Assembly (NCBI GenBank): GCA_027623315.1
Contig: JAQBYD010000006.1
Coordinates: 27,209 to 91,208, forward strand
Source: Verrucomicrobiota bacterium
GTDB taxonomy: Bacteria; Verrucomicrobiota; Kiritimatiellia; CAJWTS01
Length of the DNA: 64,000 nucleotides
Reading direction: 5' to 3'
Made by a program: the position numbers and the translations under genes. Position 1 is the stretch's first letter; each line of letters opens with the position of its first letter. A model generated the notes under the pieces. It was not told the origin of the DNA, made no database searches, and saw only the letters and a program-made list of their open reading frames with translations. Below are positions 36,098 through 52,283 of this stretch, piece by piece.

Positions 36098-36811
36098 TCA
36101 GGAGCAGTTCCGCGTCGGCGCGGTGGTTTCGTATCCGAAAGCCTCAAAGTCTTCGCGGTAGAACGCCCGGACGATCTCGGCGGACTCGGGGCAATAGTAC
36201 TCCGAGTAGTCGTTGCGTTCGATTTGGTTGAGGTGCAGCGGGGCCGTGTGTGGGAGTTTGAGTTCTTCGAAGAGGCGTTTCAGGTCTGCCTCGAGCGTCT
36301 CAACGCTGCCGAGAAAGTCGAGTCGCGTGTGCTCGATCCAGCGCACCTGCGGATTGCACTGACTGGTTCCGTTGACGTTGAAGAGCCCGATTGGATCGCA
36401 GCCGCGCTCGCCGAGTTCACGGCAGAAAGCCAGGAAGGATTCCTGGCCGGCGCCGGGACACTTTGCAGCTCTCAGGTAGAAATAGAGAGACACCGCCCGG
36501 GCATAGGGATTGCGAGAGAATGCAAACTTGAAGGCAGATCTATCAAAGCGCCGCGATACGTGGCCCTGGCTGACCAGTTCTGCGTAGTCCATATGTGTGA
36601 ACGTGACCGTCCCGCGTTGGGCGAAGCGGTACTTGGCGTGGTAGGCCGTTTTGAATTGCGGCGCGTTCAGCATGTTGAAGATACTCGTGCCGGCGTTCTT
36701 CGGAATCCATATGAATACGGCGTTTCGTCCACGCGCGGAGAAATACTCCTTGAGAAAGCGCAGACCCGTGACGTCGAAGAGGCGTTTCGTCGTGCGATGC
36801 AGGTCGATCAC
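36098..36811 (-). CDS. Sulfotransferase (PAPS-dependent, Sulfotransfer_2-like)
   Basis: 237 aa. 5'-PSB motif FIWIPKNAGTSIFNML and a 3'-PB-like region (RNPYARAVSLY). Confidence 0.7.
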   Translation of the reverse strand: MIDLHRTTKRLFDVTGLRFLKEYFSARGRNAVFIWIPKNAGTSIFNMLNAPQFKTAYHAKYRFAQRGTVTFTHMDYAELVSQGHVSRRFDRSAFKFAFSRNPYARAVSLYFYLRAAKCPGAGQESFLAFCRELGERGCDPIGLFNVNGTSQCNPQVRWIEHTRLDFLGSVETLEADLKRLFEELKLPHTAPLHLNQIERNDYSEYYCPESAEIVRAFYREDFEAFGYETTAPTRNCS

Positions 36812-36990
36812 GCAGCCATTCAGACACCCGACCGGGTTTCCATCAACTTTTTTCGGTCGTTAATGACGCTTTCGTCTGTGACGCGTGCCCGGGGCGAGGG
36901 GTGCTGCTCCACGGTTGCAATTCACGGCCGAAAGTCTGATAGTTGGAGGCTCTCAACCCGGTAGAATTAACGCAACGAGGAGACCTCAGA

Positions 36991-38283
36991 ATGACTTTTA
37001 TTCCCGCACCCACAAAAGAAACGGTTATGGACGCGTATGGACCGGCCAAGGCTCGATACTCCGAGTTCGGCGTCGATGCAGATGCCGCGATCGATCAAGC
37101 GCTGGCGATTCCCATTTCGCTGCATTGCTGGCAGACCGATGATGTCGGGGGCTTGGAGAGCCTGAGTGCGGACATTTCCGGAGCCGGGATCATGGCGACC
37201 GGCAATTACCCCGGTAAAGCCCGCAGCGGCGATGAAGTTCGCGCGGATCTGGCCAAGGCGATCGAGTTGCTGCCCGGCGTGCAACGCGTGAACATCCACG
37301 CCAACTATGCCGAGTTGGAGGGCGATACGGTCGACCGCGACGAGTACGCCCCGAAGCACTTCGCCAAGTGGATAGCCTGGGCGAAAGAGCTGGGAATCGG
37401 TCTGGATTTTAATACGACCTTCTTTGCGCACCCGAAAGCGGACGACGGCTATACGCTATCGCATTCCGATCCGGCGATCCGCGACTTCTGGATTCGTCAC
37501 GGAATCACGTGCCGCCGCATCGCCGAGCAGATCGGTCGGGAACTGAAGAGCCCCTGTGTCCTGAACCACTGGATACCCGATGGCTGTAAGGACTATCCCG
37601 CGGACCGCTGGGCCGCGCGCCAGCGGCTTGTCGAAGCCTACGATGAGATGCTCGATGAACGACACGGGATCGACACCGCGCTGTGCATCGATGCGGTCGA
37701 GAGCAAGCTTTTCGGGATCGGCAGCGAAGAGTACGTCGTCGGATCGGCGGAGTTCTACAGCAACTATGCGTTGTCGCGCGATACGGTGCTGTGCCTGGAC
37801 ATGGGGCACTTTCACCCGACGGAGACCATCCACGACAAGATTTCAGCGCATCTAAGCTTCCACAAGAAGCTCTTGCTGCATACGAGCCGCCCGATTCGCT
37901 GGGACAGTGACCACGTCGTGGTCTTCAGCGACGACGTACGCAACGTGTTCCTTGAGATCGCGCGCGGGCACGCGTGGGATCGCACCATCATCGCACTCGA
38001 CTTCTTCGATGCCAGTATCAACCGCGTGGGGGCCTACGTGATCGGCACGCGCGCGACGCGCAAAGCGATTCTCTATGCGTTACTGGATCCGACGGCATCC
38101 CTGATCAGTCTCGAGAGTGCGGGCAAGAATGCGCAGCGTCTCGCGTTGATGGAAGAGTTCAAAACCATGCCGTTTGGCGCTGTGTGGGATATGGCCTGCG
38201 TCCGTTCAGGAGTCCCGCCGGCGTGCGGCTGGATTCTTCCCATGGAGTCCTATGAAGCAAAGATTCTCGGAGAGCGTTCGTAG
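36991..38283 (+). CDS. rhaA: L-rhamnose isomerase
   Basis: Start revised to ATG 36991 with AGGAG upstream. About 430 aa. Full-length similarity pattern to RhaA (IPISLHCWQ, VNIHANYAE, DMGHFHPTE metal-site region). Confidence 0.75.
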   Translation: MTFIPAPTKETVMDAYGPAKARYSEFGVDADAAIDQALAIPISLHCWQTDDVGGLESLSADISGAGIMATGNYPGKARSGDEVRADLAKAIELLPGVQRVNIHANYAELEGDTVDRDEYAPKHFAKWIAWAKELGIGLDFNTTFFAHPKADDGYTLSHSDPAIRDFWIRHGITCRRIAEQIGRELKSPCVLNHWIPDGCKDYPADRWAARQRLVEAYDEMLDERHGIDTALCIDAVESKLFGIGSEEYVVGSAEFYSNYALSRDTVLCLDMGHFHPTETIHDKISAHLSFHKKLLLHTSRPIRWDSDHVVVFSDDVRNVFLEIARGHAWDRTIIALDFFDASINRVGAYVIGTRATRKAILYALLDPTASLISLESAGKNAQRLALMEEFKTMPFGAVWDMACVRSGVPPACGWILPMESYEAKILGERS

Positions 38284-38292
38284 TCTGGTCGA

Positions 38293-41200
38293 ATGACGCA
38301 CCTGGCGAAAGAGGCCGCAGTGGACGGTTTGAGCCCTCACCCCCTTCGACGGCGAAACAGCCCGGGTGAGGCGACGTCGAATTACGCCAGGGCGCATGGT
38401 CTTGTGTTTGCCATGGCGCTGGTCGCGGCGTCGATTCGTGCCGAGGACGAGGGTTTTCGGATGAATCCGCGTGCGGTCATGCCGGCCGGTTGGGAAGCGT
38501 TGGCCGCCGAACCTTATGATTCCGGTGAATGGGCCGGGCCCGAACGCGACCGTCAGCCCGGCCGCACGCAGCAGCGGCTTCTCTATAGTTTCGAAAATCG
38601 TGAAGCTGGGAGTGAGGTCCTGAATCCAGGCGGTGAGCGCGTCGTGGTCACGATTTCTTCCGAGCACGCCGTGACCCACGGGGAGAGCGCTGCACGGGTC
38701 ATCGCCCCCAAGGGTCGAGACTACTCCGAACTCGTCTTCGGTGCGGAGGAGATCAGGGACTGGGCCGACTTCGATTATCTCGCCGTCGATCTCTACAATC
38801 CCGAAGATCACGCGCACTCGATACAGTTCGAGCTGTGGGACGACGCCACCGAAGATTATTACGGTCGCTACACCGTAGGTACGCGCACGCGCAAGGGGAT
38901 TCAGACGCTCCTATTCCCCATTCACCACGCCAGGCGCAACGGAAAACAGGGCATGATATGGAGTGAGCTGCGTCCCGAGGACAAGATCGATAAGAACCGG
39001 CTGCGTGTCGCCAAGCTCTTTTTCCAGACGCGCAAGGACCGCGGCGCCGTCTTCTGGATCGACAACATCCGCTTGCTGCAGGAGGACGCCGCGATGCCGA
39101 AGATAGCCGTAGAGCTTCCCGGTGCCGTGGTGGCGGCCTACGACTTCGGGGCGCCCGGGACAGCGGCTCGCGGATTTTCGCCGGTCTCACACGCTGATCG
39201 TTACGAGGGCCGCTACGGATTCACCGGGAGGGTGGCGCTCGAGGATGGCGGGCGCGGATGGCCGGATCCGCTCAGCGGCACCTTCGTCCGCCCGACCGGC
39301 AGCGGCCTGATGCAGTTCAGTGCGACCATCGCCAAGGGCGGCTACCAGGTGTGGCTGTGCGGTGGGCCGATCATCAGTCATCGGAACCCGGACACGCGCT
39401 ATCTTCTGAAGCTGAACGACGAGGTCATCTATGAAGATGATCCTGCGCCCGAGGTATTTGACGGCGAGACCTACCTGCATCGGTTTATGTGGACGCAGTA
39501 CTCGGCGCGCCCGCACGCGCTGTGGCTTGATTACATCCAACCGATGTACCCGGTGTTCAAGCGGAAGATCAAAGTCACCGATGGATTGCTGAAGCTGGAT
39601 ACGCGCAACTTCTTCGTCTCGTCAATCATCGTCGTTTCGGATAAGTCCGAGGCCGACTTCAACAGAATGAGCGCTCGCCTGGTGCAGCGCCGGGTGCGTG
39701 CCTTCGAACACGCCACCACGCCGCCCGAACCCCAGGCGCGTCCGGCTTGGGCGGGCTCGTCGGACTTTACGCTGTACGTGCCCCTCGCCGACAGCAAGAT
39801 GGGGCCGCGTGCGCGGCCGAACGAAGCGGAGCGCGTTGCGCCGCGCTTGCGGGGCTCTGGCGCGCGCGGGCAGAATGTATTCGTGAGATTGGCCCTGCTG
39901 CCGCACGTGGATCTCGGCCGTTGCTCGTTGCGCCTGGGTGATTTGCGAGGCGCGGGCGGCCGGCGTATTCCAATCGAAGCCATGCGGGGGCACGTCACAA
40001 ACTGGCGATACGGCGAGCGGCACACGTCGGAGATGGCGCTGTTGCCGACGCATTCGCTTTGGGGTGAGGCCGGCGTGACGCAGTGTTTCTGGCTCTGGGT
40101 GAAGATCCCGGATGATGCGGTCGCAGGGGTCTACAGCGGAATCGTATCGTTCGACCAGGATCGCGTCGCGACTTCCGGGGCCGCGGTTACACCCAATCCT
40201 CCCGCGGTTCCGCTGGAAATCGAAGTCTTCCCGTTTCGTCTCGAGCCGAAGCTGCCGCTCGCGTTGGGCATGTACTACGCAGGCCGTCAATATCCGCGTC
40301 CCTCGCCCGCAGACGCACGCATCGCGATGCGCGCACAGATGAAGTGGATGCGTGGCCTGGGATTCACGGCGTCCAGTATCCCGGCTCCGATTGAGCTGAC
40401 GGGATTGGATATACGCGCCGGCAAGGCGCAGATGCGGTTCGATCCGGAGCCTTTCCAGATCGCGATGGAGGAAGGGCTCGGGCAGTTGCCGCAGCAGACG
40501 TTCGTGGTCAGCCAACTTGGCCTCGCGCGCGGCCTCGCGCGCAAGCTCCCCCAGATCAGTGGAGCGGCCGTGGACCACGATCCGGGGGTGGAACTTCGCC
40601 AACCAGAGTTCAAGGGGCTTTGGCGTCACGCGCTTGGCCAGTACAAGGCGTTTCTAGAGGCCTACAAGATTCCATATGCCATGGAGATTGTGGATGAGCC
40701 GCGAGAGGTCCCGAACCCTTGGAACCGTAATCTGGCCGACACGATGATCTATGGAAAGTGGCTCGGTGAGCTGAAGCTGAACCGGTTTGTGACGCTAATG
40801 TCGGACTATAATGACGGCGTCGACTACAGTCGCGTGGTGGAGCAGGCTGACATCGTATCCATCCACGGCCACAAGGGCGCTCCGCGTATCTTCGGCAGGG
40901 CACGCGTGCTGGGGCGTCGTACTTGGTTTTACAATATTGGGATGAGCCGCCGGGACTGGGGCTTCTACCCCTGGGCGTACGACGCGACAGGGCGCTTCGA
41001 GTGGCACTGGTGCTTTGTGGATGGATGGAAGGTCGCACGCGGCGGATATCCGGGACGTGAGTGGCATAATCCGTTTACGCCGATGGAGGCGTCGGCGCCG
41101 AATGCGCCAATCTCCGTAGAAAATCCAGGAGGCTTCGTCTACACGTCGGCATTGCTTAACGCGTCGGAGGGGATCGCCGACTTCGCGTACCTGGTGACTC

Positions 41201-41367
41201 TGCAGCGACTGATCATCGCGAGCAGCGGCGACGATGAGAAGCAGGATGCGGCGCAGGCGGCGCGTGAGTTGCTGCAGGCGTTGCGCACCGAGATTCGCGC
41301 GGGAAAACCAGTCGACCTGGATCGTCGTCGCCGAGATCTCGCCGAGCGGATCATCGCGCTGCAGTAA
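38293..41367 (+). CDS. Large hypothetical protein (1024 aa), possibly a carbohydrate-active enzyme
   Basis: Long ORF with protein-like composition. No motif I can assign with confidence. The C-terminal region WFYNIGMSRRDWGFYPWAYDATGRFEWHWCF is vaguely reminiscent of DUF4091/GH-like folds. Confidence 0.45.
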   Translation: MTHLAKEAAVDGLSPHPLRRRNSPGEATSNYARAHGLVFAMALVAASIRAEDEGFRMNPRAVMPAGWEALAAEPYDSGEWAGPERDRQPGRTQQRLLYSFENREAGSEVLNPGGERVVVTISSEHAVTHGESAARVIAPKGRDYSELVFGAEEIRDWADFDYLAVDLYNPEDHAHSIQFELWDDATEDYYGRYTVGTRTRKGIQTLLFPIHHARRNGKQGMIWSELRPEDKIDKNRLRVAKLFFQTRKDRGAVFWIDNIRLLQEDAAMPKIAVELPGAVVAAYDFGAPGTAARGFSPVSHADRYEGRYGFTGRVALEDGGRGWPDPLSGTFVRPTGSGLMQFSATIAKGGYQVWLCGGPIISHRNPDTRYLLKLNDEVIYEDDPAPEVFDGETYLHRFMWTQYSARPHALWLDYIQPMYPVFKRKIKVTDGLLKLDTRNFFVSSIIVVSDKSEADFNRMSARLVQRRVRAFEHATTPPEPQARPAWAGSSDFTLYVPLADSKMGPRARPNEAERVAPRLRGSGARGQNVFVRLALLPHVDLGRCSLRLGDLRGAGGRRIPIEAMRGHVTNWRYGERHTSEMALLPTHSLWGEAGVTQCFWLWVKIPDDAVAGVYSGIVSFDQDRVATSGAAVTPNPPAVPLEIEVFPFRLEPKLPLALGMYYAGRQYPRPSPADARIAMRAQMKWMRGLGFTASSIPAPIELTGLDIRAGKAQMRFDPEPFQIAMEEGLGQLPQQTFVVSQLGLARGLARKLPQISGAAVDHDPGVELRQPEFKGLWRHALGQYKAFLEAYKIPYAMEIVDEPREVPNPWNRNLADTMIYGKWLGELKLNRFVTLMSDYNDGVDYSRVVEQADIVSIHGHKGAPRIFGRARVLGRRTWFYNIGMSRRDWGFYPWAYDATGRFEWHWCFVDGWKVARGGYPGREWHNPFTPMEASAPNAPISVENPGGFVYTSALLNASEGIADFAYLVTLQRLIIASSGDDEKQDAAQAARELLQALRTEIRAGKPVDLDRRRRDLAERIIALQ

Positions 41368-42516
41368 CTACGGGTCCAATGCAATCGAACGCAGCGCGTC
41401 AACCGTTGCGGCGGCGGTTTTCTGCCAGCTGAAGCCGCGTGCGCGCTCGCGGGCAGCGGAGACGATCGCGTCGAGTTGTGCGGGGGCCATATCGAGTACC
41501 GTGTTGAGCATCCGCTCGAGATCTCCCGGGGTGTTTGGGTCAAAGTAGGTGATCGAGTCGCCGCCGACTTCGGGGATGGATGCTTCTCGCGCCGCGATCA
41601 CGGGCGTCCCCGCGGTCATGGCTTCGAGCACGGGTAACCCGAATCCTTCATAGAGGGACGGAAACGCGAAAAGCGCCGCGCCCTGGTAGAGCAGAACGAG
41701 GTCCTCGAACGCTACGTCCGAAAGCCGGACGACGCGGTCGGTATGCTTCGCGTTTCGCAACGCCTCTTGCAGCCGGGGCTCGCCCAGTCGCGCTTTGCCG
41801 ACGATGACCAGGCGGTGTTCGCGCGACTCGCAGATCGCATCGAATGCCTCGACGAGGGCGTGCAGGTTCTTGTGGGGATAGCTGTGTCCGATCGTCAGGA
41901 CATAGGGCCCCGCTCCGTTCAGCAGAGCAGCGAGGCGAGTTGAGCTTCCCGGCCCTGCTGGCGGTGTTGCCGCGAACGCCGGGTCGGCCGCTTCGGGGGT
42001 GACGCGCAACCTGTCCGGATTCGCGCCGGTGAACTGCGCTACCTCCTGGCGGGCAAACTTCGAGGGTGTCAGGATGACTTTGCAACGCCGTACCCCGGCC
42101 TGCACGAGGAGGTGTGTCGTGAGGCGTGCCAGCCAGGTGAGGTCCTCGGGAAATCGCTTGTACTGCATGTCATGAATGGTGAGTACCTGGGGGCATGGCG
42201 CCATCACCGCCGCCGTGTATCCGGGTGACCACAAGATGTCGCATCCCGATTTCGTGACGCGTCGCGGCAGCTCGGTCTGTTCGCGGATAATCCGGGCGTA
42301 GCGGTTGGTTGCCCTGAAGTTCAGGCGCTCGAAACGGGTTTCGGTGTAATCGGAGAGGAGTTCTCGCATCGAGGCATCGTTCTCGAGATTCGTAAAGAGG
42401 GTGAGGCGGATATCGGAATGATGCTTTGCGATGGCACGTACCGTTTCGCGGAAATAGGTTTCCGAACCGCCGACTTCGCCGGGGATCAGGAAGAGTGTGT
42501 TGATTGCGAGGTGCAT
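41368..42516 (-). CDS. Family 4 glycosyltransferase (GT-B, retaining)
   Basis: 382 aa. C-terminal E-x7-E motif region FAFPSLYEGFGLPVLEAMTAGTPVIA. Confidence 0.8.
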   Translation of the reverse strand: MHLAINTLFLIPGEVGGSETYFRETVRAIAKHHSDIRLTLFTNLENDASMRELLSDYTETRFERLNFRATNRYARIIREQTELPRRVTKSGCDILWSPGYTAAVMAPCPQVLTIHDMQYKRFPEDLTWLARLTTHLLVQAGVRRCKVILTPSKFARQEVAQFTGANPDRLRVTPEAADPAFAATPPAGPGSSTRLAALLNGAGPYVLTIGHSYPHKNLHALVEAFDAICESREHRLVIVGKARLGEPRLQEALRNAKHTDRVVRLSDVAFEDLVLLYQGAALFAFPSLYEGFGLPVLEAMTAGTPVIAAREASIPEVGGDSITYFDPNTPGDLERMLNTVLDMAPAQLDAIVSAARERARGFSWQKTAAATVDALRSIALDP

Positions 42517-42525
42517 CTCACGCGT

Positions 42526-43320
42526 TCACTCCCCATTCCTCCGCAGCCACTGCATTGCCGAGTACGAACCGACGATGCCCCACCAGACGCCGGTATGCAG
42601 AAACGCCTGCGGGCTGAACGCCCCGGAATCGGCCCGGGCGACGTCCCACTCTTCCCTGAATTGCGTGCAAAACTGTTGTCCGCTGATCGATTGTTTGTGC
42701 CAGCGGAATGATGCAAGCGCAGGTGCTTCGATGCGTACGGCACCCCCGTATCGCCACAATCGCAGCCACAAGTCGTAATCCCAGGCGGCGGTCAGGTCTT
42801 CGCGAAGCGGCCCGGCCACGTCGTAGGCGGCCCTTCGGAAGAACGTGGCCGGCTGCGAGATATAGTTGATGCATTGGATCGTGAAGCGCCCGGAGATTGG
42901 GAAGAAGCACTCCTTGAAGCGGGTGATTCCGCGCCGGATCTCTCGTTCCTGCTCGTCGATGATGGGGCAGTGACCGAAGGAAAGTGCGCGGTCGGGATGC
43001 GACTGCATGGTCCGCGCGACGCGCGTGAGCGCTCCAGGTGCCAGCAGGTCATCCGCGTTCAGCCAACACAGAATCTCGCCCGAAGCGCGCGACAAACCCT
43101 TGTTGATCGCGTCGGCCGGGCCACTATCCGGTTCGCTGACGAATTCGCTAATCTGATCGCGGTGCCGCTCGACGATCGCGTGCGACTCGTCCGAGCTTCC
43201 CCCGTCGATCACGATATGCTCGATGTCGAGATCTTCGGACCGTTGGGCCCCAACGCTCTGAAGGCACTGCTCCAGGAAGCGAGCGCCGTTGTAGTTCGGC
43301 GTGATCACACTGATTTTCAT
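42526..43320 (-). CDS. Family 2 glycosyltransferase
   Basis: 264 aa. ISVITPNYNGARFLEQCLQSV...HIVIDGGSSD and LNADD (DxD). Confidence 0.8.
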   Translation of the reverse strand: MKISVITPNYNGARFLEQCLQSVGAQRSEDLDIEHIVIDGGSSDESHAIVERHRDQISEFVSEPDSGPADAINKGLSRASGEILCWLNADDLLAPGALTRVARTMQSHPDRALSFGHCPIIDEQEREIRRGITRFKECFFPISGRFTIQCINYISQPATFFRRAAYDVAGPLREDLTAAWDYDLWLRLWRYGGAVRIEAPALASFRWHKQSISGQQFCTQFREEWDVARADSGAFSPQAFLHTGVWWGIVGSYSAMQWLRRNGE

Positions 43321-44522
43321 ATGTTAAGCTCTGCCAGCTCGTCGTCCGTCGCTCCCATGTGGCTCATCGCCGCAGCGATAATGTGCCTGCCGAGCGCATC
43401 GGGGGCAAGATGCCGGTCGAACGCGGTCTGGTTCTTGAGACGAATCTCCGCCCATCGCGAATCGGTAATCGAGGCGAGGAGATCCGGGATCTCGCGCCAT
43501 TCGCCCTCCGTGAACCAGATCTCAAAATCGTCCAGGCCGCAGTAGGGCATGAACTTCGGGCGGTCCATAAGGATGGGCGTGCCGCATACCATGGAGAGAA
43601 AACAGATCTCGCGCCAGCCCCAGTGCTTTCCGACGGCGTGAACATTTAGCCTGGACGATGCAAGCATCTGCTCGAAAGGCTCTTCGAAGGTCGCGCGTGA
43701 TTGAAGTAACGGCTCCGCGCGCCGCCACGATTCCGGTGAAAGCTGGTCGCGCAGCCATGCACGGTCGTAGTCATCGGTCACCTCGTTCAGTTCCCGTTCG
43801 ACGCGCCGATCGTCCGTGAGTGCCTCGACCACGTCGTGGAGCTGGGCCCGGTGTGCGGGTGAGGCCCAGAAGGTGTCCCGGACCACGATGTCGTATCGGA
43901 TCGGCAGGGAGCGATACGATTCGACCAAACGGTACCGAAGGTCGAAGCGCCTGTGTTCGGCATCACCGAGCGTAATCGTACGCGATCCCCGGCGCATGCT
44001 CCGCGCAAGAAGTCGTGACTTGAGCCACGATCCGAAATTCCGCCTATGCCGTGGAAAGTCGAGGGACATAGGCATGGGAATATAGGGCTGGACTTTACTG
44101 AACCACGCTCCGCAACTTTCGAGCGTGCTCTCGAAGCGACTCCTGAGCGTATCGACGGATTCCGTGTTCTGCCATGAATAGGGCTCGGGAAACTGCCGAT
44201 CATGGAACATCGAGGGATGATACGCGCTGCACAGGTAGAGGTCGACGTGCTGCATCGCCGGGGAGACAAAGAAAAAGCCTTCCGCAACGTCGACGATCAG
44301 AGTGCAGCGTCGCCCCTCCCATTCCACGACGATGAGACCGTGGCAACCGCGCAGAGACGAATCGATGTCGGGCGGCATGCCAAAATCGGGGGCGTCATCG
44401 GTGGCGATCTGCTTGAGCGGGATCCCGCGCCCCGCGGCGGCACGCGCGAGAGCATACTTGCTGTACCACGCGAGGCGTCCGGTCTCTCCGACCCAGGTAA
44501 TCGTTGGTGTCGATGACCGCAT
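43317..44522 (-). CDS. Hypothetical protein within the glycan locus (401 aa)
   Basis: Overlaps neighbours by 4 nt (operon context). No recognisable motif. Confidence 0.45.
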   Translation of the reverse strand: MRSSTPTITWVGETGRLAWYSKYALARAAAGRGIPLKQIATDDAPDFGMPPDIDSSLRGCHGLIVVEWEGRRCTLIVDVAEGFFFVSPAMQHVDLYLCSAYHPSMFHDRQFPEPYSWQNTESVDTLRSRFESTLESCGAWFSKVQPYIPMPMSLDFPRHRRNFGSWLKSRLLARSMRRGSRTITLGDAEHRRFDLRYRLVESYRSLPIRYDIVVRDTFWASPAHRAQLHDVVEALTDDRRVERELNEVTDDYDRAWLRDQLSPESWRRAEPLLQSRATFEEPFEQMLASSRLNVHAVGKHWGWREICFLSMVCGTPILMDRPKFMPYCGLDDFEIWFTEGEWREIPDLLASITDSRWAEIRLKNQTAFDRHLAPDALGRHIIAAAMSHMGATDDELAELNI

Positions 44523-44535
44523 GGCGATCAGCCGT

Positions 44536-45126
44536 TCAGCGTTGCCGACCGCCCTTGAACTGTCGGGTCAAGTTGCGCGCCGTGGATTTGACGCGGCTTA
44601 CCAGATCGGAGCGTCGTTGATTCGCGTGCGGAAACGGGTCCTCCGGAACGGGAAGATCGAGAAATGGGCACAGCTCGTCCCAGCCGTCTCCCGTCGTGAG
44701 GTTCAGCTCCAGAAGGTCGTCCGGTCGGTCCCGAAAGTAGCGATTCACATCGTCGTGGTGGCGGTGGTACGCAGCGGTAAATTTCTCCCGGTCGAAATAG
44801 ACGCTCTCGTAAAGCATCATACGACGCATCATGACGACGTCTTCTGCTTGTTCGTCGATCAGGTCGGTATGCATGTACTCGATCGATGCGAGCCACGCTT
44901 CCAGGTCGCGCATGAGAAGGATGAACTTTGATCCGGGAAAGCGGACGTCGAGATACTTGTAGAAAATGGTGCATCCGTTATCGGCTGCCCCGTCCAGATC
45001 TTTGAGTTCCTCGAAGGGCGGATTGTGCCGGACATTCTGGTAGCCCAGAATCTCCAGTGCCTTGCAAAAGGAATTGGTTCCTGTGCGTCCTAACCCAATG
45101 GCCCACGCCTTGTGTTTGATGCTCAT
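44536..45126 (-). CDS. Sulfotransferase family protein
   Basis: 196 aa. P-loop-like PAPS 5'-phosphate binding motif IGLGRTGTNSF. Size and motif fit bacterial Stf/Sulfotransfer_3-like enzymes. Confidence 0.6.
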   Translation of the reverse strand: MSIKHKAWAIGLGRTGTNSFCKALEILGYQNVRHNPPFEELKDLDGAADNGCTIFYKYLDVRFPGSKFILLMRDLEAWLASIEYMHTDLIDEQAEDVVMMRRMMLYESVYFDREKFTAAYHRHHDDVNRYFRDRPDDLLELNLTTGDGWDELCPFLDLPVPEDPFPHANQRRSDLVSRVKSTARNLTRQFKGGRQR

Positions 45127-46034
45127 TTTCGCTCTCCTGCCGCGTCCCGGGATTTCTTTTCGTCCGCAGCCAATCGCGACCAGACGCCGGCGTGATAGCT
45201 AACGCGGGCGTCGATCACGAACGGAAGGTACAAAATATACCTTGGATTGGCGCGCATAAACTCGGGGATCAGCGCCAATGAGACGATGAATGCGTAGGGC
45301 AGAATAAGAACCCAGTAGAAGCCGGGGTGTCGGAGCAAGATGGAGAGTTTCGCCAGCGCAGACATTTGGTCGCGGTGACGTGTCTGAACGATGAGACCCG
45401 AGCGAAAGCCGAAGTCCCACGCTGAGCGCATGATGCTTCGGTAGCGGTCGCGACCGTGATGATGGCGCACGGTGACGGCCGGCTCGAAGAGTGTGGCCCA
45501 GCCGCAGGCGTGCAAGCGGAAACAGAACTCCCAATCCTCCGATGCGCGCAGATCTTCGTCGAACCCGCCCGCTTCATCAAATGCCCTGCGCCGCACCGCC
45601 AGGGCCGCGGAGCCGAGATCCCGTCGGCCTCGCGTGACGAACTGGTATGGCGCGAATAGGGAAAAGTCCGCGCAACGGGACCAGAAGCCGGGAGGTCCGA
45701 CGACGCGGCAACCGACCGCACCCACATCGTCGGCATCATCCAGTGCCGCCGTGAGCGCGGCCGACCAGCCGTCGGGAACGACGCAGTCGTCGTCGACGAA
45801 ACAGATCGTCTCACCTTGGGCTGCCGCGACGCCCAGGTTGCGCATACGCCCGGGCGGGTAGACCGTATCGGTCTCGACAACGACAATCACGGCGCGGGTC
45901 TCGGGATCAAGCTCATCCGAGTATGGTGTAACGATCACGATCTCCTGCTCGACGCCTGCGTTTCCGGCGATCAACGACGCAACCGTCTGGCCAACCCGGC
46001 CGGGGCGGGTGGTGGGTATAATGACGCTGATCAC
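45123..46034 (-). CDS. Family 2 glycosyltransferase
   Basis: 303 aa. ISVIIPTTRPG..., FVDDDCVV (DxD), EDWEF. Confidence 0.8.
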   Translation of the reverse strand: MISVIIPTTRPGRVGQTVASLIAGNAGVEQEIVIVTPYSDELDPETRAVIVVVETDTVYPPGRMRNLGVAAAQGETICFVDDDCVVPDGWSAALTAALDDADDVGAVGCRVVGPPGFWSRCADFSLFAPYQFVTRGRRDLGSAALAVRRRAFDEAGGFDEDLRASEDWEFCFRLHACGWATLFEPAVTVRHHHGRDRYRSIMRSAWDFGFRSGLIVQTRHRDQMSALAKLSILLRHPGFYWVLILPYAFIVSLALIPEFMRANPRYILYLPFVIDARVSYHAGVWSRLAADEKKSRDAAGERK

Positions 46035-46050
46035 GGTAGACGCTTCAGGT

Positions 46051-47094
46051 TTACTCCGGAGACACCGCCGGAGCAGCCGCGCCGACGGTAGCGTGTTTTA
46101 CGAACGCGGCGGCGAGGGCAAGGCGCCGGCCCCGTGATGTCTCGACCTGCGGCGCGATTCTCGAATTGCTGTAGGCTGCGAGAATGTCGCGACCCAACGC
46201 AAGATTGTGAAAGCAGAGGCGGTACCACGCATCCGCGAGTTGCTGGTCAAACGCTGGTCCTGACTCCCCGGAGACATTCTTGCGCACCGTGATGAGGCGG
46301 CGCAGATGGGTTGTCGCCGCTTCGAATTCTTCGCGTGTCTTACATCGGTATCCCGGTCCCCGGCCCACGCGGCGGTGCCACAGCGCATCGTCGCCGGTCG
46401 GCCGTAGGCCCAGGCGCTCCAACTGGCGCTGATGAATTCGCGTGGCCTGGGTGTCCATTTCCGAACCGTCGCCCGTTGTCATGCTTCCGGCTCGAACGCG
46501 ATATGCGAGCAAGACGGCGGGGATGTTTGCGCATCGCACCTGGGGCACCAGGCGGTCCCAGAGGTCGTAGTCTTCAGCAGGGCAGAAACTCCCATCGTAA
46601 CGCATGCTATTCGGGTCAAGCGTTGCGCTCCTCCACATGACGCCAGGGTGGACAAACGGGCAGTCGAAGTAGACCGCCGCCTGGATGGCCGCATGGCTGA
46701 CGGGTGGCCGCAGTTGCGACGGTCTGCCGAGTCCGAAGGTGCGGGCCCAGGTTCCACAGAGCGCCACGTCGGGGTTCGCGTCCATAAAGGCGACTTGCTC
46801 GGCGAGGCGGCCGGGCAGGCTCACGTCGTCGGCATCCATACGGGCGACCAGGTCGCCCGTCGCCGCCCCGATGCCGTGATTCAGGGCACCGGCGAAGTGC
46901 ATCCGTGCTTCCGGTCGGAGCAGGCGAATGCGCGTGTCCTCGTAGGCCGCGACGATGGCGGCGCTGTCGTCGTCAGAGCGATCGTCAATGACCAGCAGTT
47001 CCCACTGCTGGTGCGTCTGCGCGAGGATGCTGTTGACCGCATCGCGCACGGTCTCGTGCGCGTTGCGCATCGGCATGATGATGGAGACTTGCAT
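46051..47094 (-). CDS. Family 2 glycosyltransferase
   Basis: The track ORF extends to 47517, but its N-terminal 141 aa are Arg/Pro-rich junk. ATG at 47094 gives MQVSIIMPMRNAHETVRDAVNSILAQT...LLVIDDRSDDDS...RMDADD, a canonical GT2. Confidence 0.75.
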   Translation of the reverse strand: MQVSIIMPMRNAHETVRDAVNSILAQTHQQWELLVIDDRSDDDSAAIVAAYEDTRIRLLRPEARMHFAGALNHGIGAATGDLVARMDADDVSLPGRLAEQVAFMDANPDVALCGTWARTFGLGRPSQLRPPVSHAAIQAAVYFDCPFVHPGVMWRSATLDPNSMRYDGSFCPAEDYDLWDRLVPQVRCANIPAVLLAYRVRAGSMTTGDGSEMDTQATRIHQRQLERLGLRPTGDDALWHRRVGRGPGYRCKTREEFEAATTHLRRLITVRKNVSGESGPAFDQQLADAWYRLCFHNLALGRDILAAYSNSRIAPQVETSRGRRLALAAAFVKHATVGAAAPAVSPE

Positions 47095-47102
47095 GGATCG
47101 GA

Positions 47103-47939
47103 TCACGCCTCTTCGGCGTTGCCGTGCCGCAGGCGCGTAAGCTTTGCCTGCAGTCCTTTGGGGAGGTGCTCGAAGACGCGATCCGCGATCGCCCCGAGGG
47201 CCGGGCGCATGGTGACCAGATCTCCGGAAAAGCGTCGCAGCGGGCTGTGTACGACGGCGCGGTAGCGGGTGCTGCGGTTGAGTCGTGCGGCCGAACCCGC
47301 GACATCGCCGACGCTTCCGTGGATGACCTTGACGCGTGCGCCATTTCCGAGGAATCCCGGCGCCAGTGTGCGCAGATTGTATTCCATCGGCAGGATCAGG
47401 AAGCGCAGCTCCGAGCGATAGAGCGCCTCGCGAAACGCATGCTGATCGTGGCGCGGAGTCTCGGGGCGAGTCATCTGGTCGGCATAGGTGCGCGGCCAAT
47501 CCTCGAGAAAGTCCCATACCGCATCGCTGCGACGGTAGCCAATGACGCCCGTGTTCGGCTCAGGAAAGGCATCGGGACAGTCCGCCACGGGATACGGATA
47601 CCGATTGGGTGCATAGGCGACGGTCACATCGAAGCGGAGCAGCGCTTCAAAAACATCGGCGATGCTTTCGCATACGTAGGTGTCGGTATCGAGCATGATC
47701 GTGCGCTCGTAGGGGGTTTCGCGCAGGGCGTGCATCTTGTCGAGGCAGGATCGCGTCACGTCGCGCAGGAGGACCGCGCTGTGAAAGGGACGGGGCGGGT
47801 CTTGCGCCGCGGACACATCGTCTGTGAAGAGCGTCAGCGGGGTCTCCGGCATCACGCGCATCACCGATTGCGCCGAGTCGATGGCTTCCTGGAGATGCCG
47901 CGGGCCGGTGGCGATGTAGATGATGCCCGTTTCAGTCAT
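47103..47939 (-). CDS. Putative nucleotide-diphospho-sugar transferase (GT-A-like, DxD)
   Basis: ATG at 47939 (MTETGIIYIATGPRHLQEAIDSAQSV...). IMLDTDTYV DxD-type motif. 8-nt overlap with the upstream gene. The family is not resolved. Confidence 0.45.
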   Translation of the reverse strand: MTETGIIYIATGPRHLQEAIDSAQSVMRVMPETPLTLFTDDVSAAQDPPRPFHSAVLLRDVTRSCLDKMHALRETPYERTIMLDTDTYVCESIADVFEALLRFDVTVAYAPNRYPYPVADCPDAFPEPNTGVIGYRRSDAVWDFLEDWPRTYADQMTRPETPRHDQHAFREALYRSELRFLILPMEYNLRTLAPGFLGNGARVKVIHGSVGDVAGSAARLNRSTRYRAVVHSPLRRFSGDLVTMRPALGAIADRVFEHLPKGLQAKLTRLRHGNAEEA

Positions 47940-48747
47940 CTTGCGCAGTCTCCAGCTCGGTCTCCCCGCGCGCATCGCGAACCCGTTTCTGAACGTCCTT
48001 TTCCAAGGCGTAGAGGTCTGGCGGCGGCCCGACCGACTTCTTGCCGGGCCGGGATTCGTTGACGCGATTGCGATGGTACACCAGGTACTGCAACCATCCG
48101 CGCAGGGACGGCCCAGGCAGCTCCAATTGTTTGATCAGAAATCGAAATCCACGCAGGCGCGAAATCCCGGCAAGCGTCACGCGCACGTAACGGCAACCCT
48201 GTTCGCGACAGAGGGTTTCGTAGACATCCGTACGCCTGGCCATTTCCAGGCAGTACCAGTAACAGACCTGGTAGTCATTCAACTCCCCGCCGCCACGGAT
48301 GGGCAGCACGTTCGGGTCATCCGGAGACAGGTAGAAGCGCAGCCCCTTGTCTGAGCGCCCGGGGATGGTGCCCAGTCCGACCATACTCAGCGCGACCTCG
48401 CGCGCGGGCCGCGAGAGCGCGACGATGTCCGGCCGCAGGCCAAGGTTCAGCATCGGCTCGAGGAATCCCTTGCAAAAGAGGTGGCTGGTTTCGACGTAGG
48501 TCGGCATGGGGGAGGCTGCCACACCGGTCAGCTTGCGTGAGAGGAGGAACTGCGTTGCTTCGGCCGGCGAACGTAGCGCGCTACGCATCACGTCCGCGAA
48601 CTCTGGAGCCGGCTCGTGGTGACTGTCGATGTGCGGTAAGAATTTGAAAAGTTCGGCCAGGTACGCCGTGCCACAGCGGCCGGTGGCCACACTGAAAATC
48701 AGCCTTTTGCCGGTGAGCCCTTCCGGCAGATCGGGGTGAGAGGTCAT
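47932..48747 (-). CDS. Sulfotransferase-like protein
   Basis: ATG at 48747 in ATGA overlap with the upstream GT4 stop (MTSHPDLPEGLTGKRLIFSVATGRCGTAYLAELF). The RCGT P-loop-like 5'-PSB motif matches Sulfotransfer_3-type enzymes. Confidence 0.55.
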   Translation of the reverse strand: MTSHPDLPEGLTGKRLIFSVATGRCGTAYLAELFKFLPHIDSHHEPAPEFADVMRSALRSPAEATQFLLSRKLTGVAASPMPTYVETSHLFCKGFLEPMLNLGLRPDIVALSRPAREVALSMVGLGTIPGRSDKGLRFYLSPDDPNVLPIRGGGELNDYQVCYWYCLEMARRTDVYETLCREQGCRYVRVTLAGISRLRGFRFLIKQLELPGPSLRGWLQYLVYHRNRVNESRPGKKSVGPPPDLYALEKDVQKRVRDARGETELETAQDD

Positions 48748-49868
48748 CGGGCTTCGTTTGCCAGTTCTGAGAAGAGCACGGCGTGTCGCTGCAGCCACTC
48801 TCGCACGTCAAAGAGCTCCATAGCGCGTGCGCGTGCGCGGGTCGAGTATCCCTCATAGTCCTCCATGATATTGCGCATCGCGTGTGCGAGAAGAATCGGG
48901 TCCGGAGGGGTGTCCACCGCAAAGTCGATGATTCCGGGGACGGCGAGCCCTGCGTCACGTCCGACCAGTTCGGGGACCCCACCGGTATCCGAATAGACCA
49001 CCGGCAGGCCGCACGACATGGCTTCTACCACAAGTCGCGGAGATGGGTCGTTGACCTTCGTGTGCAGGAGTAGATGGGAGTTCGACAGGACGGAGGCCGC
49101 GGCTTGTTGGGTATAGGGACCGATGATGGTGATATGGCCCTCCAGTTCAAGGTCGTTGATCATGGCGTCCAATTCACCGCGCGCCACGGACTCATCGCGG
49201 TGCCAGCACAGGCGCCCCGCGATCGTGAGGTGGATCTTTCCCCGGCCACGCAGGATGGATCGCGTGGCCTGCAGGGCACAGTCGAGGCGATAGCGACTCC
49301 AAAAACTTCCGGCGCACAGGACGCGCAGGCCGTCCGAGAGAGGTGGCCGGTCATCTGAGGGGAGGAAACGATCGGTGGGGACCGGATTGTGCCAGATCTG
49401 CCAGCCACAGGTCGGCGTGCAGAGGAACTCCTCGGCGGACAGTTTGCAGAATTCACTCTGGTATACCACGTGATCCGCGAGTTGAAGGAGTTCGCGCATC
49501 GGCGCGTTGGCTTCGTGCCAGCCTTTCCCGTACCAGCCCGGGTAGTGCACGCCGTTTTGGTTAATCACGATCTTCGCGCCCGCCTCCTTGGCCCAGGTCG
49601 CCATGCGCACCGGAAAGTAGGGCAGGGCACTGCTAACCAGGTAGAGGATATTTGCGCCGCATGGCGTGTTGGGAAACCGTTCGGCGAGATCCTGAAGTTT
49701 GATCAAGCCTCCGCCCGCAATCTCATCCACACCCGGAATCGTATCGTGTCCATAGAAGATATGGGGTTGACCGTCTCGCTGGATTTGCGACCAGCGCCGG
49801 CGTTCGCCGGCATGCGTCGTCAGTTTGATCCGGACAAGGTTGAGGCGGTCGAGCAACGTCTGTTTCAT
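48744..49868 (-). CDS. Family 4 glycosyltransferase
   Basis: 374 aa. C-terminal LLHTKVNDPSPRLVVEAMSCGLPVVYSDTGGVPELV (GT4 EX7E region). Confidence 0.8.
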   Translation of the reverse strand: MKQTLLDRLNLVRIKLTTHAGERRRWSQIQRDGQPHIFYGHDTIPGVDEIAGGGLIKLQDLAERFPNTPCGANILYLVSSALPYFPVRMATWAKEAGAKIVINQNGVHYPGWYGKGWHEANAPMRELLQLADHVVYQSEFCKLSAEEFLCTPTCGWQIWHNPVPTDRFLPSDDRPPLSDGLRVLCAGSFWSRYRLDCALQATRSILRGRGKIHLTIAGRLCWHRDESVARGELDAMINDLELEGHITIIGPYTQQAAASVLSNSHLLLHTKVNDPSPRLVVEAMSCGLPVVYSDTGGVPELVGRDAGLAVPGIIDFAVDTPPDPILLAHAMRNIMEDYEGYSTRARARAMELFDVREWLQRHAVLFSELANEAR

Positions 49869-51583
49869 GTCGATTCCTCCAGTAGACGACGGGCAAGATC
49901 AACGTACTGCATGGTGACTTCCTGAAAAGTTCGAACGTAGATCATCCGTCGGTAGACGCCGACCCGGTCGGCCATACGGTCGAGTTGGCCGAGTATATCC
50001 GATTCGTCGGTAAAGGGAAGCCCGGCGAACCCGACCAGCGTCGCATTGCCGCCTGTGTCACGGTAGAGCGCGGGGCAACCGCATGCCATGGCTTCCAGGA
50101 GTGCGTTGGAACAGGGCTCGTTCATGCTGGCCGATATGAAGATGTCGTGTTGTCGAAGCAGGGCCGCGAGACGTCGTGACGACACGGCGGGGACGTGCCG
50201 GATATTCTCGAACGTCTCCTGGGTCCGTCCGACAAAGGTGTAGTCGAAGCGATCCCAGTCCAGGTGTTGATCGAGCCACTTCAGCAGGGGTCCGCCCTTC
50301 AAGGGGTTTGGGGACCACGCAGAGGTAATCAGACGAATCTTGTCTCCGGTCCGTGTGGGCTTTCGTCCGTTCTGGTTGAAAATCACGTTGTCGACGCCGT
50401 TGATCAGAATCACCGGTCGAACGGCATCATATCCGATCTCGTGATGTTTCTGCATGCAGTACGGTGACTGGTAGACGGTGGCGTCGGCGTACTTCTGGTT
50501 GAAAGCGTGGATTTTGTGGTCTGCTTCGAAGTCGGCGTCGCGGTAGAACGCAACCGGGCCATCCACGCGATGGATCAGCTTGGGCTGGTGCTTGTCCAAT
50601 AGTTTTTCGAGCCGATCCGCGTTGAAGTTCGCCGAGTTGCAGATCACGACCGAGGACGGCCCGGCGAGGCGATTCGTGAGCACGCGCGCACCGAGGCGGG
50701 TCAGTTCTTTTCGTAGTGCGTTCATGAACTGATTCCCGCCGCCCCACGGAGGTCGATGGAACTCGTGCCATAGTGAGAACGTGAGCCCGAATCCCGGGCG
50801 ATGGGCAACCAGGGCGCGGCGCGCGCGATTCACGAACTGCCCGAGCGCTGCGGGGGACGCCCCGGCACGGGTGGCCGGCGCGCGTCGCGCTTGAACGGGC
50901 GGTACTCGGTCGAGTTCGGACAGCAATTTGCGCAGCGGACCGATCGCTGCACTTGGCGTGTGGAGCTCGCGGATGCGGGCCAGGTGCGCTGCGCAGGTTT
51001 GCGCCAGGTCGCCCGGACGCTCACAGAATGCATGAAGCTTTGCGAGGCCGTCTTCGAAACTGTCGAAGAAGCAGGTCTCATCGAGGATGTCGAGTGCGGC
51101 GCCGACGCGCGTGCAGAGGATTGGCGTCTGCGTCGCTGCGGATTCGAGCGCCGAGCGCGGTCCGCCCTCCCACCGACTGCTAATCAGGTGCAGGTCGGAG
51201 GCGTGGTAGAGCAAGTTCATCGTCTTGGCAGCGAGTACATTAAGCGGCATGTCATCATGCGTAGTCTCTTCGCCGACGAAAGTGAACGGGACGCCGCGGT
51301 CGCGCAGGCGTTCGCGAATCCAGTGCCTGCGAGGTCCCGCGAGCAGAACGTGGATCGGGTGCCCGGCCTCGAAGCACGCGGCGAGGAGTTCAAGCAGAAG
51401 CTCCGTGGCTTTCTGTTCCTTGGGGCGAGAGAGATCCGATCCCAGAGTGTCTCGCATGAAGTTACTGATAACGATTCGGTTCGGTGGAATGTCAAAGCGC
51501 TCACACAGCGCTTCGCGAGTCAATCCGTCCGGCGGTTGCGCGGTGAAGTGAGTCGGGTCAACGCAATAGTAGATGCGAAGCAT
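49865..51583 (-). CDS. Two-module glycosyltransferase (tandem GT-B/GT4-like halves)
   Basis: 572 aa. The first half ends with a GT4-like C-terminal region ([38 protein letters not shown]). The second half holds another one ([32 protein letters not shown]). Confidence 0.65.
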
Positions 51584-51589
51584 CGGCTT

Positions 51590-51802
51590 GCCCAGGTCGC
51601 TCAGGATCCTCGCCGCCTCGTCAAGCTGGGCAAGCAGTCACGCCCCAAAATAAAACTGGGCATCTGCGGCGAACACGGTGGCGACCCCAAGTCCGTGGAG
51701 TTCTGCCACCACGTCGGTCTGAACTACGTGTCCTGCAGCCCCTACCGCGTGCCGATCGCACGACTCGCCGCTGCGCACGCCGCGCTGAAGAGCACGAAAT
51801 AG
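51590..51802 (+). pseudogene. ppdK: 3'-terminal remnant (~65-70 codons) of pyruvate phosphate dikinase gene
   Basis: The + frame reads ...[62 protein letters not shown]. This matches the conserved PPDK C-terminus ([19 protein letters not shown].[24 protein letters not shown]). Everything upstream in this frame is antisense to the GT gene. The 5' boundary is approximate. Confidence 0.7.
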
Positions 51803-51823
51803 CCCCAGTCCCACAGGATTGCA

Positions 51824-51860
51824 AAAGCGCACGAGGTATACGCGCCTCGTGCGCTTTTTT
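51824..51860 (+). terminator. Rho-independent terminator downstream of the ppdK remnant
   Basis: aaaGCGCACGAGG-tatacgcg-CCTCGTGCGC followed by TTTTTT, 22 nt after the TAG stop. A perfect 10-bp GC-rich stem. Confidence 0.75.
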
Positions 51861-52271: not shown

Positions 52272-52283
52272 CGGGAGGAAGAG

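Follow-up and report, generated by a model that had tools for sequence, protein, structure and literature searches.

The stretch of DNA considered here, 64,000 nucleotides in length and in the following referred to as the window, stems from contig JAQBYD010000006.1 of a Verrucomicrobiota bacterium (GenBank assembly GCA_027623315.1) and harbours, between 36.1 and 51.6 kb, numerous glycosyltransferase genes interspersed with genes of sulfotransferase families. To compile its gene map, the listing of open reading frames (ORFs) was combined with Pfam scans and with the gene calls made for identical contigs, and membrane proteins between 36 and 51.6 kb were sought by hydropathy. A first-pass annotation of this DNA had regarded the 36.1-51.6 kb region as a single polysaccharide biosynthesis locus. 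The inventory on which that view was based, namely three GT2 genes, three GT4 genes (one of them double), a GT-A-like gene with a DxD motif, an L-rhamnose isomerase gene and two unassigned proteins, is fully reproduced in our map. Instead of one locus, however, the region comprises three separate units which lie on opposite strands and include several transcription units: a lone Sulfotransfer_2 gene, a pair formed by rhaA and a GH123-like gene, and a minus-strand operon of ten genes. This operon and one of its two sulfotransferases, designated STx, are the main subject of the present work.

Organisation of the ten-gene operon and its neighbourhood

The genes of the operon, which extends from 51583 to 41368 on a single strand, overlap or are tightly packed. 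They encode seven glycosyltransferase modules supported by Pfam (a two-module GT4, two further GT4 and three GT2), two weaker glycosyltransferase candidates (one GT8-like, one possibly of GT-B type) and two sulfotransferases (Sulfotransfer_4 and STx). Read in the direction of transcription, the operon starts with the two-module GT4 gene (49865..51640; ORF 49865-51583, 572 aa), which shows two Pfam stretches and, as judged from the alignments described below, is 5'-truncated. It is followed by a GT4 gene (48744..49868; PF00534, E 1e-16) and the gene of STx (47932..48747; 271 aa), which overlaps by 44 nt with that of a 290-aa candidate GT-A enzyme of the GT8 (glycogenin/LgtC-like) family (47103..47975). 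What is listed as a 488-aa ORF (46051-47517) actually represents two genes, the one for this 290-aa protein and, according to the gene call, one for a 347-aa GT2 (46051..47094; PF00535, E 2e-32). Further downstream reside a GT2 gene whose product has one C-terminal hydrophobic segment (45123..46034; PF10111, PF13641 and PF00535), the Sulfotransfer_4 gene (44536..45126; 196 aa), a gene for a soluble protein of 401 aa (43317..44522), another GT2 gene (42526..43320; PF00535, E 4e-26) and, as the last of the ten, a GT4 gene (41368..42516; PF00534, E 2e-24; PF13439, E 2e-16).

The 290-aa protein has no Pfam match. A profile constructed from nine homologues matches glycogenin-2 in the Protein Data Bank (PDB; E 6.5e-4) in an alignment extending across the DTD and NTGV motifs, and D96, D98, N141, G143, D177, Q178, H219 and G220, which make up the DTD, NTGV, DQ and HG motifs, are invariant. 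Its membership in the GT8/glycogenin-like GT-A enzymes is weak and we use the assignment as a provisional one. For the 401-aa protein neither a Pfam match nor any sequence or profile match in the PDB was obtained. Its AlphaFold2 model, built on only five word-index homologues, is poor (pLDDT 61), and the Foldseek matches are weak (TM-score about 0.3) but all of them are GT-B glycosyltransferases (EXT1, POGLUT1, PimA and WaaG). This protein is possibly a glycosyltransferase of GT-B type as well.

Apart from the segment in the GT2 encoded at 45123, hydropathy reveals no membrane segment in any protein of the operon. The same method detects no polytopic membrane protein in the whole stretch from 36 to 51.6 kb, which means that Wzx, Wzy, Wzc and a priming enzyme are all missing from it, in line with the lack of Wzx and Wzy previously noted, and Pfam scans of the window likewise reveal no member of the Wzx, Wzy or PCP/OPX families. 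A scan for sigma-70 promoters and terminators (34.8-53.2 kb) yielded sites no more frequently than shuffled sequence did and is therefore uninformative with respect to the operon boundaries.

The two remaining units differ from the operon in orientation or position. The Sulfotransfer_2 gene (36098..36811, minus strand; 237 aa) forms a separate transcription unit divergent from rhaA. The latter (36943..38283, plus strand; start at 36991 and 430 aa according to the gene calls, the call being in contig L001) matches PF06134 over profile positions 3-417 of 417 (E 5e-174, 579.8 bits). Only 10 nt beyond its end, the gene for a 1024-aa protein with a signal-peptide-like N-terminus and a weak match to PF22680 begins (38293..41367, plus strand). 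Both genes converge tail to tail on the operon and end exactly where it ends. Relatives of the 1024-aa protein carry PF22680, PF19543 and PF13320, i.e. GH123 N-terminal and catalytic annotations, and are found in unrelated, non-biosynthetic neighbourhoods, in one case beside a GH123_cat protein. Rather than being part of a biosynthetic locus, as had been proposed, rhaA and the gene of the 1024-aa protein probably form a pair serving sugar catabolism outside the biosynthetic unit.

Sulfotransferases of the window and the STx family

The superfamily of sulfotransferases dependent on 3'-phosphoadenosine-5'-phosphosulfate (PAPS) is defined by a strand-loop-helix element with a conserved Lys or Arg and Gly, which binds PAPS (PSB loop), and by a 3'-phosphate-binding (PB) strand-turn-helix with Arg and a Ser of the helix in R-x7-S spacing (PMC11625862). 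The sulfotransferase fold has a central parallel sheet with flanking helices. Four proteins of the window bear a PB motif of the form R-x7-S, three of them encoded between 36.1 and 51.6 kb and one at 55.3 kb in the low-GC half, in agreement with the number of sulfotransferase genes initially reported for both parts. Two of the former score well above the Pfam gathering cut-offs, namely the protein encoded at 36098-36811 (PF03567 Sulfotransfer_2, E 3e-11, 44.3 bits versus a cut-off of 22) and that encoded at 44536-45126 (PF17784 Sulfotransfer_4, E 1e-33, 117 bits versus 22.8). With IPKNAGTS and GLGRTGTN, respectively, their PSB loops present Lys or Arg at the PSB position, and their PB motifs read RNPYARAVS and RDLEAWLAS. 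The enzyme of the low-GC half (ORF 55346-56296, 316 aa) matches PF13469 (E 2e-13, 51.7 bits versus a cut-off of 27) and PF00685 (E 2e-8). In sister contigs its gene is called from an internal Met at 56245 (55346..56245, minus strand; 299 aa). While its PB motif RDGRAVMAS is regular, its PSB loop GHSGST is unusual in having His where Lys or Arg is the rule. NCBIfam provides no name for any of the four sulfotransferases or for the unassigned proteins.

STx itself has no match in Pfam or NCBIfam, nor in the PDB by single-sequence or profile searches. It possesses hundreds of homologues of about 260 aa, and in an alignment of 30 of them the sequence TGRxGT, the pair R113-x7-S121 and H89 are invariant. 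In STx the loop reads TGRCGT and the PB motif RPAREVALS, the latter including the invariant R113 and S121. Twelve of the 30 homologues weakly match PF00685 (Sulfotransfer_1), at best with an E-value of 1e-5. The AlphaFold2 model of STx (pLDDT 91.4, pTM 0.88) was compared with the PDB by Foldseek, and ranks 1 to 6 are occupied by TPST, CurM-ST and TPST1/2 (E 1e-5 to 7e-4, TM-scores 0.45-0.49), with heparan 3-O-sulfotransferase (3-OST) and cytosolic SULTs also being among the fold matches. Taken as a whole, the motifs, the fold model and the Sulfotransfer_1 matches of its homologues indicate, and thus confirm indirectly, that STx is a sulfotransferase of a family which Pfam does not cover.

The possibility that the P-loop-like proteins are nucleotide or sugar kinases may be addressed at this point. 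Adenylate and deoxynucleoside kinases do occur among the fold matches of STx (E about 1e-3). Yet, sulfotransferases rank first in this search, three of the four proteins exceed the Pfam gathering thresholds of sulfotransferase families, and the R-x7-S motif is present in all four. Moreover, the loops IPKNAGTS, GRTGTN and TGRCGT carry Lys or Arg and none of these three, which were checked for it, contains a Walker A motif (GxxGxGK[ST]); the fourth loop, GHSGST, has His. Hence, a kinase identity of these proteins is exceedingly improbable, and their designation as sulfotransferases in the first-pass annotation is upheld by Pfam and fold matches as well as by the PSB and PB motifs.

An exhaustive profile search retrieved 1428 representatives of the STx family at the 50% identity level. 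Long members are fused to GT2, GT21, GT25, GT-D-like or methyltransferase domains, and these fusions tie the family to glycan modification. STx-family genes (40-43% identity) also occur in the cultured strains Hongsoonwoonella zoysiae SY4-7 (L070) and Stappia sediminis BGMRC 2046 (L072), where the full module described below was not seen around them.

The STx-containing module and the 5' end of the operon

Scanning one genome per species for the STx family yielded 69 loci from many phyla, which were then searched with the proteins of the window. The order double GT4, GT4, (401-aa protein), STx, GT8-like, GT2 recurs with 34-54% identity in more than 15 loci. Hosts of this module are metagenome-assembled genomes of Desulfobulbales, including the cable bacteria Electrothrix and Electronema, and Puniceicoccaceae, and STx-containing glycosyltransferase clusters are also present in Phycisphaeraceae and Rhodothermales. 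Homologues of the GT4 encoded at 48744-49868 (30-52% identity) are located directly upstream of STx in 17 loci, those of the GT2 encoded at 46051-47094 (32-43% identity) are found in 18 loci, and those of the 401-aa protein (29-37% identity) in six Desulfobulbales loci, making it a recurrent member of the module. Distant loci also conserve both halves of a methyltransferase-GT2 fusion, a second GT2 and a polytopic membrane protein for which nine or more transmembrane (TM) segments are predicted. Sulfotransfer_4 or Sulfotransfer_2 genes are often close to the module: homologues of the former co-occur with STx in L011, L014, L019, L031, L078/L079, L080 and L083, while homologues of the Sulfotransfer_2 enzyme (27-28% identity) are encoded 0.9-1 kb downstream of STx in the Desulfobulbales-type loci L016 and L017. 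The presence of multiple sulfotransferases is therefore a repeated property of the module and not a peculiarity of the window.

We tentatively propose, at somewhat less than even odds, that STx defines a widespread sulfotransferase family missed by the curated libraries and serves as signature enzyme for a glycan module shared by horizontal transfer. This module would comprise the double GT4, the GT4, STx, the GT8-like enzyme, the GT2 and methyltransferase, a further GT2 and a polytopic GT-C-like membrane glycosyltransferase. As part of the same joint proposal, cable bacteria, other Desulfobulbales and Puniceicoccaceae/Opitutales would share one conserved sulfated and methylated envelope glycan which has never been described chemically. 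If this holds true, surveys of sulfotransferases based on PF00685, PF03567 and PF13469 underestimate bacterial glycan sulfation. In the Electrothrix aestuarii-type locus L077 (13675-14811, 16723-18765) the module is also accompanied by UDP-galactopyranose mutase (GLF), several methyltransferases and a PMT_2-like membrane protein of 680 aa. This gene content is a hint that the cable-bacterium version makes an envelope glycan which contains galactofuranose and is methylated and sulfated. A literature search combining cable bacteria and sulfotransferase returned nothing.

The closest counterpart of the operon is carried by contig L080 of a close relative, which is collinear with it over nine genes at 66-84% amino-acid identity. 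Upstream of its double GT4, L080 encodes a MarR regulator, a fused ABC exporter (614 aa) of the MsbA/PglK type, not of the Wzm/Wzt type, and a methyltransferase-GT2 fusion (579 aa), the exporter gene being two genes upstream of the double GT4 with the methyltransferase-GT2 gene in between. In divergent orientation there follow genes for another GT2 and for a polytopic membrane protein (nine or more predicted TM segments). The MarR regulator and the orthologous ABC exporter are missing from the operon of the window, and neither half of the methyltransferase-GT2 fusion, nor the extra GT2, nor the polytopic membrane protein is detectable anywhere in the window. Furthermore, the double GT4 of the window (572 aa) corresponds to residues 114-684 of its 685-aa orthologue from L080 and thus lacks the first 113 residues. 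Its alignments to the proteins of L080, L022, L071, L019 and L014 begin at subject residues 111-120, and the distant double-GT4 homologues all possess 110-120 additional N-terminal residues. The homology extends about 19 codons upstream of the ATG, up to an in-frame stop at about 51640. The operon is 5'-truncated relative to its close orthologue and has lost its own exporter, and it may no longer work unaided. Therefore, the earlier assumption that a heavily and regio-specifically sulfated exopolysaccharide (EPS) or glycolipid is made here cannot be maintained as a premise.

At the point of truncation the double GT4 gene joins, head to head, the 3' remnant of a gene for a PEP-utilising enzyme (51647..51802, plus strand). 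This remnant consists of the last ~50 codons, encoding a PPDK-like C-terminus (PF02896 positions 247-291 of 293, E 2e-12), and is followed by a terminator-like hairpin (51841-51860). Assembly chimerism at 51640 was considered and judged unlikely. As the junction is found in three independent assemblies (L001, L002 and L005) we treat it as real; one conservative Logan contig ends at 51623, 14 nt from the junction. The simplest explanation is a rearrangement, most likely a deletion between two genes of divergent orientation, which cost the operon its head and the PEP-enzyme gene most of its sequence. We also considered site-specific integration of an island with duplication of the target's 3' end, which the ppdK-like remnant would then mark; neither an intact ppdK copy nor an integrase is present in the window.

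From 34.5 to about 51.74 kb (17 kb), one synonymous single nucleotide polymorphism (SNP) is the only difference between the window and contigs of the same population. Between 51739 and 51790, eight SNPs distinguish L001 and L002 from the window, each of them at a third codon position of the PEP-enzyme remnant. Beyond 51790 these two contigs diverge from it completely, whereas L005 carries the window's own junction. The interval 51739-51790 has the appearance of a recombination boundary lying within a conserved, formerly functional gene next to a swappable glycan island. In the alternative variant L001, a GT-C-like protein with 12 TM segments and a GT2 replace the low-GC DNA. The former (L001:1155-3260; 701 aa, about 12 membrane segments) has no Pfam match and is GT-C-like in its architecture, while the latter (L001:1-907) is related to the GT2 which follows the polytopic membrane protein in the loci of cable bacteria. 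Two small ORFs of the junction region (52284-52676 and 52701-53087, both plus strand) are conserved in sister contigs, and the first weakly matches the family of 23S rRNA intervening-sequence proteins (four-helix bundle).

The strain-variable region of the window (51790..64000) is mostly of lower GC content, with values of 0.45-0.57 beyond about 51.8 kb compared to about 0.61 in the high-GC part. It harbours an operon which continues past the end of the window (53014-64000 and L005:1-6034) and encodes, in this order, a Glyco_tran_28_C-like protein, an enzyme of the CMP-sugar synthetase type, NeuB, a 461-aa protein of unknown function, a SASA esterase, an MBOAT protein with a single-TM partner, an Asn-synthase-like amidotransferase, an ABC exporter as the penultimate and the Sulfotransfer_3/1 enzyme as the last gene product. 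This gene set suggests that a second glycan is made, which would contain nonulosonic acid, be O-acetylated and possibly be sulfated. The exporter (56318..58099, minus strand) is a fused TMD-NBD protein of the MsbA/PglK type (PF00664 and PF00005) and had been put forward as the export route for a sulfated glycan. Its identity to the exporter of L080 amounts to 30%, and from this comparison and its gene context it is to be regarded not as the orthologue of the latter but as part of a separate, strain-variable operon, which leaves the suggested route possible but without specific support.

Interpretation and comparison with known systems

In our favoured interpretation, to which we assign a probability of about 0.6, the operon 51583-41368, a copy of the conserved module that is 5'-truncated relative to its close orthologue, encodes soluble cytoplasmic enzymes which would build and sulfate a heteroglycan, and it would now either depend on other genes or be undergoing loss. 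A sulfated glycan is a reasonable product given the location of sulfotransferases among many cytoplasmic glycosyltransferases. Its assembly would proceed on a lipid carrier on the cytoplasmic side of the membrane, after initiation by a primer enzyme encoded elsewhere. Using PAPS as donor, the sulfotransferases would sulfate particular hydroxyls, at two or more positions of the glycan. This step should precede export because PAPS is cytoplasmic and the enzymes have neither signal peptide nor membrane segment. In intact versions of the module the glycan would also be methylated, and the finished product would leave the cell via an ABC exporter instead of Wzx/Wzy, possibly being processed further by the polytopic GT-C-like membrane enzyme. 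In the organism of the window, the pathway would have to borrow an exporter or else be defunct. We consider it a roughly even choice whether the truncated copy depends on other genes, e.g. the unrelated ABC exporter of the low-GC operon, or is on its way to loss, since intact ORFs and near-absent polymorphism do not discriminate between the two.

Several observations weigh against this interpretation. The TM-scores of the fold matches of STx are moderate, and nucleotide kinases appear from rank 7 with similar E-values. The sulfated product is one predicted from genes. In the window no priming phosphoglycosyltransferase, ligase or polymerase was found, so that the acceptor could be an EPS, a lipopolysaccharide (LPS), a glycolipid or a glycoprotein. 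An ABC exporter adjoins the module only in L080, most distant loci having none within 10 kb; hence, ABC-dependent export may not hold for the module as a whole. In addition, none of the ten ORFs is disrupted, and one synonymous SNP is all that separates the population variants. Positive signs of decay are thus missing, and the copy, though truncated, may have kept its full function.

A different view, implied by the first-pass annotation, is that the whole 36.1-51.6 kb region and the low-GC half form one working locus. Its product would be a heavily and regio-specifically sulfated EPS or glycolipid, with the MsbA-like ABC protein at 56.3 kb serving as exporter. In agreement with this view, four sulfotransferase genes, each of a different family, lie within 20 kb, all ORFs are intact, a fused ABC exporter is encoded at a distance of 4.7 kb and a divergent intergenic region (51.8-52.3 kb) could supply a promoter. 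The view is, however, difficult to reconcile with a first glycosyltransferase devoid of its N-terminal 113 residues and with the missing orthologous exporter, methyltransferase and regulator. The exporter it invokes is, at 30% identity to the orthologous one, embedded in an operon with genes for nonulosonic acid and O-acetylation, co-occurring strains with the identical ten-gene operon have other DNA in place of the low-GC half, and rhaA and the GH123-like gene are of catabolic type and lie on the other strand. We therefore regard a single working locus as unlikely. A somewhat better case can be made for the operon being a non-functional remnant, with promoter, exporter and part of the first enzyme deleted and the rest not yet decayed, although this, too, appears doubtful to us. 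The truncation and the loss of conserved parts of the module fit such a scenario, as does the position of the region at the border of a recombination-prone variable island; the near identity of the variants over 17 kb suggests that the event was recent. Against a remnant stand ten genes free of frameshifts and internal stops, an in-frame ATG which restores a 572-aa product with the second GT4 module intact, and the recurrence of the same arrangement in at least three samples or assemblies and on two island backgrounds.

A further alternative leaves the state of the operon aside and concerns the acceptor: the sulfotransferases might act on a lipid, a small metabolite or, as RaxST does, on protein tyrosine, their proximity to glycosyltransferases being incidental. 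The best fold matches of STx indeed include tyrosylprotein sulfotransferases and the sulfotransferase domain of the polyketide enzyme CurM, and not every member of Sulfotransfer_3 and Sulfotransfer_4 acts on carbohydrates. But STx is embedded in the same order of glycosyltransferase genes across phyla, is found fused to GT2, GT21, GT25 and GT-D domains, and its gene overlaps that of the GT8-like enzyme by 44 nt, as mentioned above. A non-glycan acceptor is, in our opinion, very unlikely.

Returning to the favoured interpretation of the operon as a truncated copy of a glycan-sulfating module, it is instructive to compare it with characterised systems. For a long time, sulfated glycans were considered, among bacteria, a near-exclusive trait of the cyanobacteria. 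The first-pass annotation had called bacterial glycan sulfation by PAPS-dependent enzymes comparatively rare, a statement which has to be attenuated in view of clusters with multiple sulfotransferases in cyanobacteria (PMC8205485) and Vibrio (PMC11641403) and of a sulfotransferase cluster in Pontiella (PMC7356697). The xss cluster of Synechocystis sp. PCC 6803 comprises two sulfotransferases, eight glycosyltransferases and Wzx/Wzy and produces the sulfated EPS synechan, and other cyanobacteria possess sulfotransferase-bearing glycan clusters of both the Wzy and the ABC type (PMC8205485). As in the operon of the window, several sulfotransferases of different subfamilies are placed among the xss glycosyltransferases, and sulfation is presumed to take place in the cytoplasm prior to export. 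In contrast to the window, whose copy is truncated and without Wzx/Wzy, xss includes Wzx, Wzy and PCP genes as well as the dedicated regulator XssQRS, and its product is chemically verified. The orthologous operon in L080 has a fused ABC exporter where xss has Wzx/Wzy.

Closer to the proposed export route is the cluster for the sulfated capsular polysaccharide of Vibrio sp. KMM 8419, which contains three sulfotransferases, an ABC transporter and cysNDC and whose product structure was solved by NMR (PMC11641403). This marine bacterium resembles the window in having three sulfotransferase genes, many glycosyltransferases and, as proposed for the module, an ABC route. As far as can be compared by description, it differs by the presence of cysNDC, for PAPS, and of rml genes, whereas the window contains neither PAPS nor nucleotide-sugar genes; Pfam scans of the 64 kb revealed no cysD, cysN, cysC or sat. 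Pontiella sulfatireligans F21 forms a sulfated exopolymer in culture and harbours a putative cluster for a sulfated glycosaminoglycan with one PF13469 sulfotransferase, eight GT2/GT4 enzymes and methyltransferases (PMC7356697). Belonging to the Kiritimatiellae, it shares with the window the phylum Verrucomicrobiota and the placement of a sulfotransferase among GT2 and GT4 genes. According to its description, it has a single PF13469 enzyme, an aminosugar transaminase and N-sulfation, unlike the window with its Sulfotransfer_4 and STx enzymes and no aminosugar genes. The rhizobial NodH, LpsS and KpsS and the mycobacterial Stf0 are single sulfotransferases acting on Nod factor, LPS, K-antigen or trehalose (PMC11625862). 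In NodH and Stf0 the PSB loop contains Arg, as it does in STx and in the Sulfotransfer_4 enzyme of the window. The known enzymes carry out PAPS-dependent sulfation of surface glycoconjugates, as those of the window would. Unlike the genes of the window, those of NodH, LpsS, KpsS and Stf0 do not belong to a multi-glycosyltransferase operon of this order, and STx escapes the Pfam models by which these enzymes are recognised.

With respect to assembly and export, an analogy may be drawn to the polymannose O-antigens O8/O9a of E. coli. Their ABC-transporter-dependent synthesis involves the GT4 enzymes WbdA, WbdB and WbdC, the methyltransferase WbdD as terminator and the transporter Wzm/Wzt. Counterparts to this arrangement would be the multi-module GT4, the lack of Wzy and, at the head of the L080 operon, an ABC exporter and a protein with a methyltransferase domain. 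On the other hand, the exporter of L080 is a fused MsbA/PglK-type half-transporter rather than Wzm plus Wzt, its methyltransferase is fused to a GT2-like domain rather than to a kinase or coiled coil, and sulfotransferases are present.

Since sulfotransferase-bearing glycan clusters as such were already known, the novelty is modest and concerns the example from Verrucomicrobia, the STx family, the module shared with cable bacteria and the truncation beside a variable island. Each well-supported sulfotransferase-bearing glycan operon outside the cyanobacteria, here in a planktonic population of Verrucomicrobia, widens the range of likely producers. As both Pfam and NCBIfam miss STx, surveys of sulfation potential based on Pfam (e.g. 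PMC9723792) would overlook this family. Conversely, a truncated copy beside a strain-variable glycan island illustrates that gene inventories alone overstate the capacity of an organism. The conserved module offers targets for biochemistry, in particular STx, its overlapping GT8-like neighbour and the cultured carriers of the STx family.

Two observations concern the window outside the regions discussed so far. Between 241 and 6732 on the minus strand an unusual, lipid- or polyketide-like gene set is found, which consists of a GT2, the beta and alpha subunits of a 2-oxoacid dehydrogenase E1, two ketosynthase-like proteins, a FabG-like reductase and a short lipoyl/E3-binding protein. Furthermore, two giant proteins are encoded at 19138-27105 (plus strand) and 6765-13463 (minus strand). 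The one of 2655 aa contains 11 DUF11 repeats, a reprolysin-like metalloprotease domain and a Calx-beta domain, while that of 2232 aa shows a weak match to 3-keto-disaccharide hydrolase-like proteins as its only one.

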